Shown here one piece after another: positions 2,197-9,323 of a stretch of DNA of 38,756 nucleotides (positions within the stretch are counted from its first letter, which is position 1; the number at the start of each line of letters is the position of its first letter). The stretch lies in contig JAUVHP010000001.1 in NCBI GenBank assembly GCA_030593225.1, positions 1 to 38,756 of the forward strand. The letters are read 5' to 3'. The notes under the pieces are model-generated. The model was not told the origin of the DNA. It searched no databases and was given only the letters and a program-made list of their open reading frames with translations. Made by a program: the position numbers and the translations under genes. This DNA is from an archaeon. GTDB lineage: Archaea; Nanobdellota; Nanobdellia; Pacearchaeales; GW2011-AR1.

Positions 2197-2267
2197 TTTT
2201 TATTTTTTTTGTAAAAATGTAGTGTATAAACGTAACATTTAAATAATATGTAGTGTATAATTATATT

Positions 2268-3182
2268 ATGGTATCACTTAGAAAAATTAAAGTTGCAGGA
2301 AAAGGATATTGGATTTTGATTCATTCTTTTAGAGAAGGAGAGAATGTAAAACAAAAGCAAAAATACATTGGGAAATTTCTTCCTAAAAAGGCAGAGCTTG
2401 ATAAGATGAAAAAGAAATTTTTAGAGGAGATTAAGCATAAGGGAACTAAGTATTTTTCACAAGAAGATTTGGAAAAAATTGAAAAGAAAAAGTTAGAATA
2501 TACAAGAGAATTAAGAAGATTAAGTAAGATTGAGAAAGATAAAAAACTGAATGAATTTATGATAAGATATACTTATGATAGTTCTAAGCTTTCAGGGATA
2601 GATGTTACGCTTCGCCAGACATTTTTAATTTTACAGGAAGGAATAATTCCTAAAGAGTTTAAGAGTTTGCGTATAGCCAAGGAATTAGAAAATCATGAAA
2701 AGGGTTTTATTATGATTACAAAATATAATGGGATTTTTAATTTGAATTTTATAAAAAAGTTGCATAGAATTTTAATGAATGGGGTAAATGATGAAATTGT
2801 AGGAAAATTAAGAAATGAATTAAAAAGAAATGTAAAAATTGCAGGAACAACTTATATTCCTTCAAAATGGGAGAATCTTGAAAAGGAAATAAAAAACTTT
2901 TTTATTTGGTATAAAGAAAATTCTAGAAAATTGCATCCTTTGGAACTTGCTGCTTTAGTTCATTTAAAATTAATTTCAATACAGATTTTTGTAGATGGAA
3001 ATTCGCGACTTTCTCGACTTTTAATGAATTGGATTTTATGGAAAAAAGGTTATCCTATGATTGATATTCCGATAAGGGATTTAGAAAATTATTATAATGT
3101 TTTAGATTATTATCAAATAGAGAAAGATGAAAAACCTTTTGTAAAATATATTAAGAAGAGGTATTTATTGGAAAAAGATTAA
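2268..3182 (+). CDS. Fic/DOC-family protein with degenerate active-site motif
   Basis: Fic-core-like segment LVHLKLISIQIFVDGNSRLSRLLMNWILWKKGYP aligns to HPFx(D/E)GNGRxxR, but His is Gln and the second Gly is Ser. The ATG at 2268 is preferred over the GTG at 2253. Confidence 0.8.
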   Translation: MVSLRKIKVAGKGYWILIHSFREGENVKQKQKYIGKFLPKKAELDKMKKKFLEEIKHKGTKYFSQEDLEKIEKKKLEYTRELRRLSKIEKDKKLNEFMIRYTYDSSKLSGIDVTLRQTFLILQEGIIPKEFKSLRIAKELENHEKGFIMITKYNGIFNLNFIKKLHRILMNGVNDEIVGKLRNELKRNVKIAGTTYIPSKWENLEKEIKNFFIWYKENSRKLHPLELAALVHLKLISIQIFVDGNSRLSRLLMNWILWKKGYPMIDIPIRDLENYYNVLDYYQIEKDEKPFVKYIKKRYLLEKD

Positions 3183-3284
3183 TTATTTTTTTTGCAAAAT
3201 TTTTACTTTGACATTTATTTTTTTTGCAAAATTTCTATACTTTATTCTATAAATTAATTTAAACTTCTTTAATATTTTTCTTTT

Positions 3285-4490
3285 ATGGATAATATAAAAT
3301 TTGAAGTAATTAATAAAATCAGTAAAATAAATTTTAAGTATAATAATTTGAAAAAGATTTCTAAGATTGATAGTATTTCTCCACCGAGTGTTTTTATTGG
3401 TTCAAAGTTGAAGTATCCTTTGGTAAATGTTGGGATTTTGTCGCCTTTGGATAATATTGATAATGCGTGGATTTATGACGATGCGAAATATTGGGCAAAG
3501 AATGATTTTGGTATTTCTGATGTTATTAAGTTAAGAGATAATCTTCTTAATTCTCGTTTTCAATCTAAGGTTAGTGATTCTCGGTTTAGTAAAAGATTTG
3601 TTGGTATTGCTCAGGAAATTGCGATTGCTTCTAAGCCAGTGGATGTTGAAATTGAGTTGAAAAGAAAATTGAATTTTGATAAAAGAAAAGATAAAGTTTT
3701 AATGCATCAGGGAATGAGTGCGCCCTTGAAAGGGGCAAGGATTACTAGTAATGTTAAGGTTCATAAAAAAGTTGATAGAGTTATGAATGATGAAATTAAA
3801 TCAAAAGAGGGAATTGAATATTTGTATAAAAATAATTTTGATGAGTATGCTTTGAGTAAAATTTTGAGTGTTGGTGTTTTGGGTTTGAAAAAGGACAAGC
3901 GGTTTGTGCCGACGAGATGGAGTATTACTGCGACTGATGATATTCTTTGTAAGAAAATTTTAGAAAGAGTTAAAGAATATAAATGGATTGAGAATTATGA
4001 ATTATTTTTTGGTGAGTTTATGGGAAATTGTTATTTGATTATGCTGTTTCCAAATGTTTTTAATTTTGAATTATTTGAGTTATATCTTCCTGGAAGTTCT
4101 TGGAATCCTTCTCAACAAATCAAGGCATCAACTGATTATGAAAATTTTTTTGGAAGAAAAACTTATGCAAGTAATTGTGCTGGAGGATATTATGCTTCGC
4201 GGTTGCCTATTGTTGAATATTTGAATTCAATAAAAAAACAAGCAAGTGTTTTAGTTATTAGAATTGAGACACCGTCGTATTGGGCTTCATTAGGTGTTTG
4301 GGTATGTCGAGAAGCTTGCAGAAAAACTATTAATGGTAGAAAACTAAAATTCGGTTCAAAAGAAGAGTTATTAAATTCTGCTGAAATTATTGCAAAAAAG
4401 AAATTTAATTTTGATATTGAGAGCATCCTCACAAAAAGTAAGTTATTAGATAAGATAAATACCCAAAAAAATCTTAATGAATTCTTTTGA
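3285..4490 (+). CDS. Nre-family (DUF650/DUF651) archaeal DNA-repair-associated protein; its last ~63 codons appear to be supplied by an inserted cassette
   Basis: 401-aa ORF with the PTRWSITATDD motif that I recall as typical of archaeal NreA-like proteins. The C-terminal 63 codons have a diverged second copy downstream at 5500-5688. Confidence 0.65.
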   Translation: MDNIKFEVINKISKINFKYNNLKKISKIDSISPPSVFIGSKLKYPLVNVGILSPLDNIDNAWIYDDAKYWAKNDFGISDVIKLRDNLLNSRFQSKVSDSRFSKRFVGIAQEIAIASKPVDVEIELKRKLNFDKRKDKVLMHQGMSAPLKGARITSNVKVHKKVDRVMNDEIKSKEGIEYLYKNNFDEYALSKILSVGVLGLKKDKRFVPTRWSITATDDILCKKILERVKEYKWIENYELFFGEFMGNCYLIMLFPNVFNFELFELYLPGSSWNPSQQIKASTDYENFFGRKTYASNCAGGYYASRLPIVEYLNSIKKQASVLVIRIETPSYWASLGVWVCREACRKTINGRKLKFGSKEELLNSAEIIAKKKFNFDIESILTKSKLLDKINTQKNLNEFF

Positions 4491-5499
4491 TGAACCTTTC
4501 TGTTTTTTGAGCTAGAGTACAAGTGGGAAATTTTTCAGATATTTTTAACATATCTTTATAAAATTTATTATAACTTTTTGAAGAGATACTAAATCTATAA
4601 ACATCAAATTTTCCATAGGCATACTTTTCTCTAAGAGGGTGGCAAATATATTTGCATTTTATGCCTATTTCTCTAATATCATTCATTAATCTTTTATTTT
4701 TTCCATAGATTGTAATAACTTCTCCAACATGTCCTTCGTCAACAATGAAGGAAATAAGTCCCGCAAATAAAAATTGTTTATTTAATTTTTTAATATTTTC
4801 TGGAATGTATGCTTCAAAAGTATTTGTGTTTGGAAGTTTAAAGTAATATTTATAAAATTCTGTGATAATTTTTGGGATATTTAATCTTCCATTTTTATAT
4901 TCTCTCATGGGGTAATTAAAATCCCCAAAGATGTTATTTAATTTTTTTAGAAAATTGTTTAAACCCATATTATTCATTTGCCTATATGATGATACAACTG
5001 TTTTTCTTCCAATATGTCCATCTCCCACAAAATGAAAAATAACTGAGATCATTTCTGGAGTAAGGCTTAAAGGTAATTTTGGATTAGTTATATTATGGGA
5101 TTTTCCAGTTCCAGTATAATATTCTATATTTTGTTCTATGTCTCTTAAAACTTCTTTATAGTTATCTTTTGAAATAATCTTTGATGCTTCAATTAATATC
5201 CACAGAGGAATATTTATATTTTTTATTTTTCCTCTATCTTTTTTTTCTCCAATCTTCCAATATGAAAGATGCCCTGAATTATATTTTCTTTTTATTCCGT
5301 ATTTTTTTGATGATTTATTTAATGAATGTAATAATCCTTTTCGAGAACCTTTTATTTCTTTAAGATTTTTGAAGAATTTTATTCTAAATTCTTTTTTTAA
5401 TCCAATAAATGTTAGTGTTGGATGAAATTCCCAAATATGTATTTCTTTATATTTTTTCATAATTTATCTAAGATTTTTGTGTTTATATCGTTTATGTAA
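4299..5499. mobile_element. Free-standing homing-endonuclease cassette: replacement nre 3' end (4299-4490) plus an oppositely oriented LAGLIDADG gene
   Basis: The cassette lies between the point where the two nre C-terminal copies begin to align (Trp codons at 4299 and 5500). It contains only the HEG and the new gene end. Confidence 0.65.
4474..5460 (-). CDS. Two-motif LAGLIDADG homing endonuclease
   Basis: Two dodecapeptide-like motifs, VIFHFVGDGHIG and FAGLISFIVDEGHVG, about 100 aa apart. Basic N-terminal region. The 3' end overlaps the nre stop convergently by 17 nt. Confidence 0.8.
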   Translation of the reverse strand: MKKYKEIHIWEFHPTLTFIGLKKEFRIKFFKNLKEIKGSRKGLLHSLNKSSKKYGIKRKYNSGHLSYWKIGEKKDRGKIKNINIPLWILIEASKIISKDNYKEVLRDIEQNIEYYTGTGKSHNITNPKLPLSLTPEMISVIFHFVGDGHIGRKTVVSSYRQMNNMGLNNFLKKLNNIFGDFNYPMREYKNGRLNIPKIITEFYKYYFKLPNTNTFEAYIPENIKKLNKQFLFAGLISFIVDEGHVGEVITIYGKNKRLMNDIREIGIKCKYICHPLREKYAYGKFDVYRFSISSKSYNKFYKDMLKISEKFPTCTLAQKTERFIKRIH

Positions 5500-5688
5500 T
5501 GGGTTGTTAGAGAATCAGTAAGAAAATCTTTGAAAAATAAAATAATTTTTGATTCTAGAGAAGAATTAATTGAGAGTGTTAAACAAATTTCAAAAATTAA
5601 ATATAATTTTGATTGTGAAAATATTTTACAACAAAGTAAATTGTTAAAACAAATTAAGACGCAGAAAAATTTGGTAGAGTGGTTTTAG
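5500..5688 (+). pseudogene. Displaced original 3' end of nre (62 codons + stop, no start, preceded by an in-frame TAA)
   Basis: Translation WVVRESVRKSLKNKIIFDSREELIESVKQISKIKYNFDCENILQQSKLLKQIKTQKNLVEWF* aligns with the end of the intact gene, WVCREACRKTINGRKLKFGSKEELLNSAEIIAKKKFNFDIESILTKSKLLDKINTQKNLNEFF*. Roughly half the residues are identical by eye. Confidence 0.75.
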
Positions 5689-5738
5689 GGATAGATTTAT
5701 TAATCACTTTACTTTTTTATAATTAATTAAATAAAAAA

Positions 5739-5984
5739 ATGGGTGATAAGATGGATTGTGAATATAAACATTGTAATGCTATTCTTGCAATAGTTATTTT
5801 GGTTTTTTCATTTTGGCAAGTAACTTTGAATTGGTTTACTTCAAAATGGATAATTGTTGCTGTCGCTGTTTTGATTTTATTCAATAGTATTGGTTCTGGT
5901 AAAAGTAATAATAGAATATGCAGTGTGAAGAAAGTTTCAACAAAGAAAAAGGCAAAAAAAGCTGTTAAGAGAAAGAAGAAATAA
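5739..5984 (+). CDS. Small membrane protein with Lys-rich C-terminal tail
   Basis: 81-aa ORF with two hydrophobic segments followed by KKVSTKKKAKKAVKRKKK. Preferred over the overlapping antisense ORF 5723..6028. Confidence 0.5.
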   Translation: MGDKMDCEYKHCNAILAIVILVFSFWQVTLNWFTSKWIIVAVAVLILFNSIGSGKSNNRICSVKKVSTKKKAKKAVKRKKK

Positions 5985-6222
5985 ATAGTTTCACTATTTA
6001 TATCATTAATTCGTTCAGGCGTGGCCAAATTGAAGAAAAAGTAATTTTTTATTTTTTTATTTTCTTCTTGTTTTGTTTATTTAGATAATTTTTTGTAGAT
6101 TTTTATTTTCAAAGTTTGGGGGAGATTAAGGATATTTTACACGTAGTATTTCATTATTGTAACTCAATTTGGTTTTGTAAAATATTCAAAAAAAGGACTA
6201 TATAAATTTTTTTTATGAAAAA

Positions 6223-6609
6223 TCAATTTAACTTATCGTTGTGGAATAATGACTGGATAGAACAGTATTTTTCCAGAATAAAGTTTATTAAACATGATAA
6301 AACATAGTAATAAATTAATTTTATTATAATGCGGGTTATCAAAATGATTCTCCTAGCTATGTGATAAGGTAATGGAATGTATGAGGAAATATCAATATTC
6401 CCAAGAACCATGCTTAAAGGGTCAAGTGCCCACCTAAATATTACTATAATCCAAACCAAAAAAAAGCCTGGATCAAAAGAAAATGATGGGGGAAATGGAA
6501 CATCTATCAGACCAAATGTTAAAAAAATGGACAAAAAATAACCACCAATCAAAAAAACTGTAATCCAGAATTTTTTCCATGTGAATCTAAAAAAATCTTT
6601 CCAACCCAT
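6223..6609 (-). CDS. Hypothetical membrane protein
   Basis: 128-aa ORF with several hydrophobic helices. Confidence 0.55.
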   Translation of the reverse strand: MGWKDFFRFTWKKFWITVFLIGGYFLSIFLTFGLIDVPFPPSFSFDPGFFLVWIIVIFRWALDPLSMVLGNIDISSYIPLPYHIARRIILITRIIIKLIYYYVLSCLINFILEKYCSIQSLFHNDKLN

Positions 6610-6830
6610 AATTTATTATAAAATAAAAACTATTTAAATTTAATTAAAGAATCAATCTAAGTTGATATTAGTTGTATAATAAAAGATATCTGAGCAGTTT
6701 CTTTTGGCTCTCAAGTTCACTTGCCTATGACACTTCACAAATTAATATTAGTAAAGTCATTCTGTTCCCTACCTTGTCCCCGAGAAGTCGTTTTTTTCTA
6801 CACTTTAATAAAAATTACGCGAATGCGAGA

Positions 6831-9323
6831 TTATTCATTCTCCATCTCCTTCCTCTGTCTGTATTCTTCAATTCTTTTTTTGTTTGTTGGACATTCAGAG
6901 TTAAAACAAAAAAACCATGGGCGTTTGCCAAAACGTAAACTCATTAACATTGGGAAACCACATTCTTCACAAAGTTTTTCTGTTTTTTTGATTGTGCCTG
7001 GAGGAAGTGAGAAAGTTGTTTTGCAATTTGGATATGCGTCACACGCAATAAAATGTTTTCGTGTTTTTTTAGAGTAAGTTATTGCTAAATTTCCTTTTTT
7101 ACATTTTGGACACAGCACTAATTTATTTTCAATTTTTTGTTGTTCTCTTTGTTTAATATTTGCATTAAGTAATTCTTTTCCTATTTCTTTTTCATGTTTT
7201 TCAAAATCTTTTGCTATTTTTGTAATTGTTTTTTTTGCAGTGTCAATTACATTTTGTTTCTTTTTTTCTAAATCTTTTTTTGACTTGAGAATTCCTTGCA
7301 TTTTTTCTTCAAGATTTTTTGTTAATTTTTCATCTATTATAATTGGAGAGTGTTTTTCTAATGTATTTATTAGTGATATTCCAAGCGGAGTTGCTGTGAC
7401 TGATTTATCTTTTACATATCCTCTGTCGTACAATGTTTCAATAATTGACGAGCGTGTTGCTTTTGTTCCTAAATTTCTTTTTTCTAACTGCGAGATTATA
7501 GAGGCAGGGGAATATCTTTTTGGAGGTTGTGTTTCTTTTTTTTCTATTTTTTTTTCTATTATATTTACTTCCCCCTCTATATCTGGAATTTCATTTTCTT
7601 TTTGTTTTGTAGGATAAATTTCCATCCATGCTTTTTTTCTTATTGACATTCCTCTAGCATTAAAAATTAACTTTTCTTGAGTTATCACTTTCTCCCCTGT
7701 TTCTGATAATGAATTTTTTTGCCCCTCTCCCAGTCCTTTTTGCTGTGATAACTCTTTGTTTTTAATTTCAACTTCTACTGAAATTGTTTTATTATCAATA
7801 ATGGCATCATCACAAAATAAAGCTAGAAATCTTTTTACAATTAAGTTGTATATTTTTTCTTCGTTACCTGCAAAAATTCCTTCATTGCCTGTTGGATAAA
7901 TTGAAGGGTGTGCAGGGTCTGTTTTTTTACCTTCTATTGGTTTGTCTTTTGTGATTAGTTTTTGAACTTTGTATTTTTTTGCAAGTTTTTGTAAAATTGT
8001 TTTGTAATCTATTGATGAAGGTAATTTTTGTGAAGAGGTTCTGGGGTAAGAGATTGCTCCAGTTAAATAAAGTGATTGTGCTGCTTTGAGGGTATTTGAA
8101 GGAGTTATTCCGTAGAATTTGTAGGCCTCTGTTTGCAGTGTTGTTAAATTAAATGGGGGATTTGGTGGAAGAATTGTTTCTGATTTTTTTGTTTTTGCGG
8201 TTGCAGTTTTTCCAACAAGATTTTCAAATTTTTTTAATTCTTTTTCATTGAAAATATCTTTATTATGTTTAAGTTGAAGTTTATTTTTTTTATCTTCCAC
8301 AGTTATAAAAATTTGCCAATATGGAACTGATTTAAAATCTTGTATTTCTTTTTCTTTTTTTACAATTAAATTTAATGCTGGTCCTTGAACTCGTCCGATT
8401 GACATTATTCTGAATGTGCCTGTTGTTTTAATTGCGTTCATTAATGCTCGTGAAAGATTGATTCCATAAAACCAGTCAATATAATGACGAGCTTCTCCTG
8501 CTGAGGCCTGGCCCCATTCAAGATGTTTTAGTTTTTTTTCATAGGCCTTATTTAATTCATCTGGTGTAAGTGTTGAGAATTTCATTCTGCTTGCATCTTT
8601 TTGTCCGCAAATATATTTTACAATATTTGTTCCAATTACCTCGCCTTCTATATCAAAATCAGTTGCAACAGTTATACTTCCTGCGTTTTTTGCGAGTTTG
8701 ACTAATGTGTCATAATATCTTTTAGTGAAATCGTTTTTTCTTGCTAAATAATTTGGAACCCAACTAATGTCAAAAATTGGAATATGTGAGCCAGGAATGT
8801 TTTGTTTTAATGTGAACAAATGTCCTACTGCACATGCAACATATATTTTTTTGCCATTTTTATCTATTTCATAATATGGAACTTTTTGATGATTTTTTTG
8901 TGTAGGTTTTCCAAGTGCTTGTGCAATTTTCGAAGCTGCTTGAGGTTTTTCTGTAATTATTAGTTCATAGCCCTTATCTTTTAATTTTATTTTTGGAGGA
9001 ATATATTTTTTTTCTTTTGTTGTTGTTCTTTTTGAAATTCTTTTTTTTATAGTTCTTTTTTTTCTTGTTTTTCTTTTTGGATTTTCTATTTTTTCTAATT
9101 GTTTTTTAGTTGGTTTAGAATAAGTTTTTTCTACTGATTTTTTTAATATTTCTTCAATGGGTTGGGATTCTTTTATTGGAATCTCTCTTGATTTTTTTAA
9201 AATTTCTTCTTGTTGAGGTTTTCCTTTTTCTAATTTTTCTGTTGTTTTTCTTAAATTGCTTTCATCTACTGGAAAATAATTTTCAGAAGATTTTTCTTCT
9301 TTTGTTTTTTTTAGTTTTTTCAT
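6831..9323 (-). CDS. topA: DNA topoisomerase I (type IA) with Lys-rich N-terminal extension and C-terminal zinc ribbons
   Basis: Toprim region ELIITEKPQAASKIAQALG and DFDIEGEVIG. Active-site Tyr context GAISYPRTSS. C-terminal CPKC..C..C and CEEC..C..C zinc-finger motifs. Confidence 0.92.
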   Translation of the reverse strand: MKKLKKTKEEKSSENYFPVDESNLRKTTEKLEKGKPQQEEILKKSREIPIKESQPIEEILKKSVEKTYSKPTKKQLEKIENPKRKTRKKRTIKKRISKRTTTKEKKYIPPKIKLKDKGYELIITEKPQAASKIAQALGKPTQKNHQKVPYYEIDKNGKKIYVACAVGHLFTLKQNIPGSHIPIFDISWVPNYLARKNDFTKRYYDTLVKLAKNAGSITVATDFDIEGEVIGTNIVKYICGQKDASRMKFSTLTPDELNKAYEKKLKHLEWGQASAGEARHYIDWFYGINLSRALMNAIKTTGTFRIMSIGRVQGPALNLIVKKEKEIQDFKSVPYWQIFITVEDKKNKLQLKHNKDIFNEKELKKFENLVGKTATAKTKKSETILPPNPPFNLTTLQTEAYKFYGITPSNTLKAAQSLYLTGAISYPRTSSQKLPSSIDYKTILQKLAKKYKVQKLITKDKPIEGKKTDPAHPSIYPTGNEGIFAGNEEKIYNLIVKRFLALFCDDAIIDNKTISVEVEIKNKELSQQKGLGEGQKNSLSETGEKVITQEKLIFNARGMSIRKKAWMEIYPTKQKENEIPDIEGEVNIIEKKIEKKETQPPKRYSPASIISQLEKRNLGTKATRSSIIETLYDRGYVKDKSVTATPLGISLINTLEKHSPIIIDEKLTKNLEEKMQGILKSKKDLEKKKQNVIDTAKKTITKIAKDFEKHEKEIGKELLNANIKQREQQKIENKLVLCPKCKKGNLAITYSKKTRKHFIACDAYPNCKTTFSLPPGTIKKTEKLCEECGFPMLMSLRFGKRPWFFCFNSECPTNKKRIEEYRQRKEMENE

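Follow-up and report, generated by a model that had tools for sequence, protein, structure and literature searches.

A putative mobile endonuclease cassette carrying a replacement 3′ end of nre in an archaeal chromosome

Organization of the nre locus

The stretch of DNA analyzed here, referred to as the window, comprises 38,756 nucleotides (nt) of contig JAUVHP010000001.1 (GCA_030593225.1) from an archaeon of Pacearchaeales GW2011-AR1. It is AT-rich (29% G+C) and by its sequence resembles the DNA of DPANN archaea, its relatives being labelled Nanoarchaeota, Pacearchaeota, or Woesearchaeota. The window contains an nre gene whose 3′ end is present twice and, between the two copies, a gene on the opposite strand for a predicted LAGLIDADG homing endonuclease (Table 1). 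Here, we describe this arrangement as a putative mobile cassette and compare it with related loci and proteins, which are designated by L and P numbers, respectively.

The two copies have the same orientation and are separated by 1.2 kb. The tail attached to the intact gene (4299–4487) and the downstream copy (5500–5685) share 34 of 63 residues (54%; 75% positives, one gap; BLASTP E 6e-21) and are about 64% identical at the DNA level, and the second copy on its own still matches positions 53–110 of Nre_C in Pfam (30.1 bits, cut-off 27). The common C-terminal ending of the tails is explained by the canonical PCNA-binding (PIP) box that closes each of them; in Haloferax, the function of NreA requires its C-terminal PIP motif (PMC4929162). 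Immediately upstream of the TGG at position 5500, the second copy is preceded by an in-frame TAA (5497–5499), and its earliest possible start codon is an internal TTG. The sole substantial open reading frame (ORF) between the copies is the endonuclease gene, which has its own start and stop codons. A preliminary description of this DNA had pointed out a repeat of the last nre codons with about half of the residues identical, the shared ending, the in-frame TAA, and a lone opposite-strand gene overlapping the nre stop by 17 nt; the alignment, the translations, and the ORF coordinates agree with it on all of these points.

The same description had predicted a target site near a Trp codon, and alignment locates the junction at that codon, in TGGGT. 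Both borders of the insert carry this pentanucleotide, and the crossover could therefore lie anywhere within these 5 nt. The replacement end leaves nre intact, and the residues following the junction read WVC REA C in place of WVV RES V. At the other end of the insert, the spacer upstream of the endonuclease start holds a conserved TATA-like TTTATAT (5482–5488; on the minus strand, ATATAAA at −22 to −28) and a motif, CTTTATAT..TTTGTGTAT, that is kept in five loci (the window, L001, L048, L103, and L114). Judging from these elements, the spacer probably holds the promoter of the endonuclease gene.

Base composition is uninformative in this region, with G+C at 22–31% throughout. An inverted repeat around the endonuclease ORF (4445–4476 and 5469–5500, 75% complementary) was treated as a chance match, because it does not surpass some 30 comparable pairs in the AT-rich sequence around it. 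The intergenic region just 5′ of nre contains a 23-nt direct repeat, TTATTTTTTTTGCAAAATTT(T/C)TA, at 3183–3205 and 3215–3237 (copies 32 nt apart), which may be a regulatory or promoter element.

Table 1. Features of the nre locus, in window coordinates
Feature	Coordinates	Strand	Basis or remarks
nre	3285–4490	+	401 aa; full Nre_N (E 3e-73) and Nre_C (E 4e-27) by Pfam
Native part of nre, codons 1–338 (Nre_N and beginning of Nre_C)	3285–4298	+	
Left junction TGGGT (Trp339 codon and 2 nt)	4299–4303	+	Three-way alignments, junction table
Cassette-borne replacement 3′ end of nre	4304–4490	+	With 4299–4303, 63 codons and stop
PIP box QKNLNEFF in the functional copy of nre	4464–4487	+	Translation
Tail-to-tail overlap of the nre and endonuclease frames, stop codons included	4474–4490		17 nt; ORF coordinates
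Predicted free-standing LAGLIDADG endonuclease gene	4474–5460	−	328 aa; AlphaFold2, Foldseek, motif conservation
LAGLIDADG motif 2, KQFLFAGLISFIVDEGHVG, D241/E242	4723–4779	−	On model helix 228–242
LAGLIDADG motif 1, PEMISVIFHFVGDGHI, predicted catalytic Asp147	5011–5058	−	On model helix 135–145
Right cassette end: spacer upstream of the endonuclease start, finishing with TAA 5497–5499	5461–5499	−	39 nt
Displaced native nre 3′ end (remnant)	5500–5688	+	62 codons and stop; no start codon at head
PIP box QKNLVEWF of the remnant	5662–5685	+	Translation
Native downstream flank with 81-aa ORF (5739–5984)	5689–5984	+	Collinear with the L034 flank
For comparison: predicted target sequence in L034-type empty alleles, ..TTGGTGTTTGGGTAGTTCGTGAAAGTG..			

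The intervening gene encodes a predicted LAGLIDADG enzyme

The 328-residue product of the intervening gene has no Pfam match even at an E-value of 10 and no sequence match in the PDB (phmmer). A search of a large protein collection returned 97 homologs, and a library of clusters at 50% identity yielded 294 representatives at E ≤ 0.001; the Pfam family PF14528 was found only in the most distant homologs, P0095–P0097. The AlphaFold2 model, which was computed from an alignment of 85 sequences (pLDDT 95.2, pTM 0.92), shows the pseudo-dimeric alpha-beta-beta-alpha-beta-beta-alpha fold of a two-domain LAGLIDADG enzyme, with an extra N-terminal domain (residues 1 to ~125) in front of the two-motif core. 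In a Foldseek comparison with the PDB, the model matched the TliVMA intein endonuclease (E 8e-7), PI-SceI, I-DmoI, and I-Tsp061I with a probability of 1.00, the target-normalised TM score for I-DmoI being ~0.6, and matches at a probability of at least 0.97 comprised LAGLIDADG enzymes and the LAGLIDADG-fold protein WhiA and nothing else.

Each motif helix ends in a conserved acidic residue beside a glycine. Across the 85 homologs, G148 in motif 1 (FHFVGD147G) and D241 in motif 2 (FIVD241E242G) are invariant, and conservation is at least 90% for G146 and D147 in the former and for E242 and G243 in the latter. The preliminary assignment of the gene to two-motif LAGLIDADG enzymes is therefore upheld by structure prediction and motif conservation, although it finds no backing in Pfam or PDB sequence matches. 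As modelled, the protein represents a divergent LAGLIDADG subfamily with the same fold and with conserved catalytic residues. Distant relatives of ~400 aa carry an additional C-terminal winged helix of the ArsR type; the window protein has no helix-turn-helix (HTH) domain.

An empty allele identifies the downstream tail as native

The closest Nre protein, P0099, is encoded at locus L034, where RadA, nre, an 82-aa ORF, and topoisomerase I follow one another and no insert is present; the window carries the same genes downstream of the remnant. P0099 is 87% identical to the window protein over codons 1–338. Its tail shares 89–90% of its residues with the remnant versus 56% with the attached tail, which is what the preliminary description had expected of cassette-free alleles. 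At the DNA level, the window and L034 are 84.8–86.5% identical in the rest of nre, 87.3% in the remnant, and 65.1% in the attached tail. The native part of the window gene aligns to L034 4001–5014, and blastn matches window 5500–5979 to L034 5015–5490 at 78% identity, with window position 5500 falling on the Trp codon of L034. In agreement, the window nre tracks L034 in a three-way alignment up to TGGGT and then departs, and the remnant tracks L034 from TGGGT onward. The downstream tail is thus the native one and the attached tail is foreign to the gene. Differences between the remnant and the L034 tail are mostly synonymous (dN, nonsynonymous divergence, 0.07; dS, synonymous divergence, 0.58; rest of nre, 0.076 and 0.75), and since both values resemble those of the functional part of nre, the displacement is recent relative to the split from L034.

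The wider surroundings of the two alleles differ in places. Directly 5′ of nre, the window has a Fic/DOC-domain gene (2253–3182) where L034 has a RadA-like recombinase gene; in L001 and L004, a RadA-like gene lies farther upstream of nre, with a small gene in between. The ~850 nt that separate the 81-aa ORF of the window from its topoisomerase I gene (5985–6830) have no counterpart in L034, in which the small ORF and the topoisomerase I gene are ~30 nt apart. This stretch includes a 128-aa hydrophobic ORF on the minus strand (6223–6609).

The same junction recurs in other loci

The endonuclease gene is flanked by two nre 3′ ends also in L001, L048, L103, L114, L021, and L025. We paired cassette-bearing loci with their closest empty relatives and compared DNA identities in the rest of nre, the attached tail, and the remnant, respectively. 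These amounted to 89.2, 60.9, and 76.6% for L001 and L055, to 75.5, 59.3, and 69.8% for L048 and L052, and to 97.9, 63.5, and 93.7% for L103 and L037. In all four independent pairs, the remnant is nearer to the empty allele than the attached tail is, with the smallest margin in L048.

L103 and L037, which stem from the same JGI project series, are near-isogenic, with a difference of ~2% in the rest of nre, and they delimit the insert precisely. L103 equals the empty allele through ..GGGGTTTGGGT on the left and again from TGGGTTGTTAGAG on at the right; what separates these two parts is the cassette, with the 5-nt TGGGT at its borders. Consistently, full-length remnants of the ~330-aa subfamily all begin at the same codon. 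On the right side of the cassette, L103 and L037 share only 80–90% identity along ~900 nt (L103 1829–2780), between flanks at 96–100% and with 99% identity in the initial 100 nt of the remnant; such patchiness could stem from imported flanking DNA.

Distribution and tail-to-tail architecture

Presence of the cassette is polymorphic. In a metagenome sample seeded with nre, which yielded 49 informative nre loci related to the window, four (~8%) carry the endonuclease gene. None of the 45 loci without it has a full second copy of the nre tail; an old tandem duplication shared by all relatives without an endonuclease, one of two outcomes that the preliminary description had named as refuting its view, was thus not seen. 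In genomes and metagenomes, nre-adjacent homologs occur in ~22 distinct loci (repeat assemblies removed) from metagenome-assembled genomes (MAGs) labelled Nanoarchaeota, Woesearchaeota, Iainarchaeota, Micrarchaeota, and Hadarchaeota. All of these homologs are convergent with nre, at identities of 35–84% for the endonuclease and 31–79% for Nre. The 3′ ends of the two genes overlap by 8–41 nt wherever both frames are readable, except in L008, where nre is broken; there, nre appears frameshifted and is recovered as two tblastn segments (5980–7195). The endonuclease ORF is nearly always intact. Genomes were scanned with an alignment of 18 sequences.

A more distant protein with a LAGLIDADG domain and a winged helix, P0093 from an Aenigmatarchaeota MAG, is encoded convergently with a radical-SAM gene, with a 3′ overlap of 18 nt (L115 3501–4796 and 4779–5714), which repeats the tail-to-tail arrangement seen at nre. 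A displaced remnant of the radical-SAM gene was looked for at L115 and none was found. The idea that the sister family plays the same trick on other genes was therefore rejected, with P0093 lacking a remnant and P0095 and P0097 lying in unrelated contexts.

Remnants at all stages of decay and chimeric tails

The displaced ends decay, as in the fungal architecture cited in the preliminary description. Remnants are intact in the window, L001, L048, L103, L114, and L021; they have lost their first half in L007/L073, L008, L011, L012, and L033; and they contain stop codons in L004/L009, L019, and L025. In about half of the cassette-bearing loci, a remnant is undetectable.

The two kinds of tail carry distinct signatures. 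Attached tails of cassette-bearing loci begin with WVCRE(A/S) and mostly end with EFF before the stop codon, whereas remnants and the tails of loci without the endonuclease gene begin with WVVRESV and mostly end with EWF. Cysteine is found at tail position 3 in 18 of 23 tails with the endonuclease gene versus 7 of 42 without it (Fisher p 2e-6). In a leave-one-out log-odds test, five of five intact remnants were native-type in every third, and the attached tail of the window had the cassette-type signature.

Some tails combine both types. In L036 (1356–1547) and L093 (4515–4706), which have no endonuclease gene, the tails begin cassette-like (WVCREACRKT..) and continue native-like. Such chimeras may possibly reflect loss by recombination between tail copies or partial co-conversion, which would leave alleles that are resistant yet empty. 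Degenerate remains of an endonuclease gene were not detectable downstream of the chimeric alleles L036, L059, L067, and L093. L013 (5830–6018) has the reverse chimera, native-like and then cassette-like, along with an endonuclease gene shortened at its 5′ end, possibly a footprint of endonuclease-gene loss or of recombination between tail copies. The chimeras, together with the mosaic tails discussed below and the patchy tract of L103, fit the cycle of invasion, fixation, decay, and loss that is expected of homing genes; the same features also show long residence in some lineages.

Further rearrangements affect the nre 3′ end in individual loci. In L090, the last ~22 nre codons recur ~500 nt downstream (4638–4703 and 5219–5284; three mismatches in ~66 nt), with no endonuclease gene but with a G+C-richer ORF of ~130 aa on the same strand between the copies, unrelated to the endonuclease; the arrangement resembles the outcome of another, distinct insertion at the 3′ end of nre, in which the gene end was duplicated as well. 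In L004 (1516–1683 and 1722–3770), and similarly in L009, the stop-bearing Nre_C remnant lies 2.3 kb from the endonuclease gene with a RecQ-family helicase gene in between, and therefore a later insertion or rearrangement took place in the right flank. The displaced tail of L001 (3770–3967) has been called as a 65-aa “Nre_C” gene with a GTG start two codons 5′ of the Trp codon, likely an annotation artefact of a kind that may be widespread.

A proposed homing cycle and its alternatives

We consider it highly probable that positions 4304–5499 (~1.2 kb) form a mobile cassette with a predicted homing endonuclease, inserted at Trp339 of nre and similar in type to the mORF elements of fungal mitochondria. 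Read from its sequence, the putative cassette consists of a replacement for the last 62 nre codons, the opposite-strand LAGLIDADG gene whose last codons overlap them, and a short spacer. The enzyme would cut uninterrupted nre at a conserved sequence spanning the junction, roughly GGTGTT TGGGT^TGTTAGAGAAAGTG; the sequence conserved around the junction of empty sites is GGTGTT TGGGT^TGTTAGAGA. The break would then be repaired from a cassette-bearing allele, with nre upstream of Trp339 (codons 1–338) serving as the left homology arm and the displaced native tail plus the downstream flank as the right one, and the cassette would be copied into the cut allele during this repair. Invaded nre would remain functional, because the cassette brings a complete tail with a PIP box. 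It would also be immune to further cutting, because the left junction is recoded right after TGGGT (from GTT GTT AGA GAA AGT to GTA TGT CGA GAA GCT) and the right junction lacks the left half-site. The displaced tail would decay afterward. Through the overlapping stop codons, the gene end that would confer immunity is physically tied to the endonuclease gene, and the overlap may explain the EFF ending, the codons of which are shared with the K-R-I-H end of the endonuclease. Site-specific cleavage by the enzyme, the extent of its target site, and a route for DNA from cell to cell are what we infer in proposing this cycle.

Several observations weigh against such a cassette, at least in its plainest form. 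No donor of the window's attached tail was identified, its best matches being only 58–62% identical. Across cassette loci, identities are ~72% for the endonuclease, ~68% for Nre, and ~51% for the attached tails; the endonuclease broadly co-diverges with the host (r 0.69), and the identity of the attached tails is tied more closely to the host (r 0.76) than to the endonuclease (r 0.59). The element thus also resides vertically for long periods and recombines with host tails. A viral vector was looked for, and no relative was found on viral contigs (IMG/VR). All data are metagenome assemblies. Since tail identity tracks the host more than the endonuclease, we regard the attached tails as mosaics, whose cassette-type character is reliable only in the first third and the last codons, and a simple version in which tail and endonuclease form one clonal unit across loci was rejected. 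Of the preliminary view that the attached tail is a foreign, recoded copy, the foreign origin stands; across loci, however, the tails are mosaics with host sequence.

An alternative reading is that the LAGLIDADG protein has been domesticated and is inherited vertically as a partner or regulator of nre, such as a WhiA-like factor or an NreA-associated nuclease, with an immobile element and a remnant left by one ancient rearrangement. Indeed, every nre-adjacent homolog, in MAGs that carry the labels of several phyla, sits on nre, the protein exceeds Nre in conservation and is nearly always intact, distant members have a C-terminal winged-helix domain, and WhiA is among the structural matches. 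Nevertheless, we give this reading little credence: the gene is present in only ~8% of closely related nre loci, alleles with and without the cassette can differ by as little as ~2% in nre outside the tail, several separate lineages have fresh remnants of the native type, and a host partner would have no evident use for the recoded junction. The catalytic Asp and Glu residues are also kept, unlike those of WhiA.

A different question is whether the downstream copy is a decaying remnant at all or a small gene retained for a free PCNA-binding (PIP-box) peptide. That it is uninterrupted in six loci (the window, L001, L048, L103, L114, and L021), that a gene caller made a 65-aa gene of the L001 copy, and that eroded remnants retain the last ~33 codons with the PIP box would suit such a peptide, as would the low dN/dS relative to the functional L034 tail, although the latter is also expected under recent displacement. 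The TAA at the head of the window copy and the internal position of its first possible start speak against a peptide gene, as do the stops or first-half losses in L004/L009, L019, L025, L007, L008, L011, and L012, the lack of a detectable copy in about half of the cassette-bearing loci, and the stronger divergence of the remnant compared with the rest of nre in the L103 and L001 pairs; we judge a retained peptide gene very unlikely. If the nre 3′ end had simply been duplicated in place and an unrelated gene had then been inserted, or if the assembly were in error, no site-specific mobility would be required, and both the direct orientation of the copies at a distance of 1.2 kb and the metagenomic origin of all data could be cited in favor of this view. 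Duplication, however, predicts two equally host-like copies, and the identities to the empty allele are 87 versus 65%; moreover, the same junction, orientation, and stop overlap recur in ~22 loci assembled independently from different samples, and a full second tail accompanies none of the loci without the endonuclease gene. This explanation is hardly tenable.

Relation to known mobile endonuclease genes

Free-standing endonuclease genes of T4-type phages, seg and mob, spread by double-strand-break repair together with flanking DNA, a process known as intronless homing. They lie between genes, cut a neighbouring gene, encode GIY-YIG and HNH enzymes, and involve neither a replacement gene end nor a remnant. 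The mosaic right flank of L103/L037 resembles the co-conversion seen in phages; unlike these genes, the nre cassette carries a replacement gene end, leaves a remnant, and belongs to the LAGLIDADG family. WhiA is a bacterial transcription factor with a LAGLIDADG fold and a C-terminal HTH domain in which the catalytic acidic residues have been lost. The ~400-aa relatives of the window protein likewise add a C-terminal HTH domain to a LAGLIDADG scaffold; in contrast to WhiA, the acidic residues are conserved here and the window protein itself has no HTH domain.

LAGLIDADG enzymes of archaeal rRNA and tRNA introns (I-DmoI, I-Tsp061I) and of inteins (TliVMA, PI-SceI-type) share with the window protein the fold and the two helices bearing Asp or Glu, and they are its best structural matches. 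The nre-linked family differs from them in being too divergent for Pfam, in its ~125-aa N-terminal domain, and in the optional winged helix of its relatives. Unlike a gene interrupted by an intron, nre has a continuous frame with its own stop codon. An intron was ruled out on this basis together with an Rfam scan, which returned no intron family at E-values up to 1. Nor is this an intein, for the endonuclease is encoded on the opposite strand, between start and stop codons of its own.

The closest parallels are the mORF hybrid genes of fungal mitochondria, namely atp6, atp9, cox2, and nad3 of Glomus sp., atp9 of Rhizopus, and cox2 of Mortierella (PMC3630166), as well as atp6 of Allomyces macrogynus with ORF360 (Paquin, Laforest & Lang, 1994, as cited in PMC3630166), a precedent to which the preliminary description had already referred. 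In both settings, a free-standing endonuclease gene, of the LAGLIDADG type in most Glomus cases, moves with a foreign C-terminal copy of its target gene, the native C-terminal part is pushed downstream, and the host gene stays intact. Relatives free of the insert resemble the native copy, and it is the inserted copy that diverges (~64–81% in Glomus, 64–65% here). The nre cassette differs in its location on an archaeal (DPANN-type) chromosome and in targeting a nuclear-type DNA-repair gene. Its endonuclease gene lies on the opposite strand with interlocked stop codons, whereas the fungal ORF follows on the same strand and is often fused in frame; this is a difference of layout, not of logic. 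Further differences are that a whole endonuclease family, found in MAGs labelled as several phyla, is dedicated to one site, that this family is invisible to Pfam, and that the attached nre tails are mosaics with host sequence. Full-text literature searches retrieved no description of such an element in archaea, although absence there is not proof; as far as we found, an endonuclease that carries a spare gene end is known from fungal mitochondria and apparently new for archaeal chromosomes.

Implications

The nre cassette extends a homing strategy of fungal mitochondria to archaeal chromosomes and to a DNA-repair gene, and it indicates that neither an intron nor an intein is required for a LAGLIDADG gene to invade a protein-coding gene. 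The cassette also defines a LAGLIDADG subfamily that is undetected by Pfam and has a predictable target site, which is useful for meganuclease discovery. A homing element persists only if alleles meet and recombine, and therefore cassette-bearing and empty nre alleles offer a marker of gene flow in uncultured DPANN archaea. For genome annotation, short Nre_C genes called beside such loci are displaced gene ends rather than genes.

A bolder view, which we hold to be speculative and on balance unlikely, is that an ancient LAGLIDADG lineage, with or without a winged helix, specialized on the nre 3′ end across several archaeal phyla (Nanoarchaeota/Woesearchaeota, Diapherotrites/Iainarchaeota, Micrarchaeota, and Hadarchaeota by MAG label) and has persisted by continual homing, that the interlocked stop codons evolved to make the immunity-conferring gene end inseparable from the endonuclease, and that the enzyme or the PIP-box tails were co-opted into NreA/PCNA biology. 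If this is true, cells in natural DPANN populations would have to exchange DNA with one another regularly and undergo homologous recombination.

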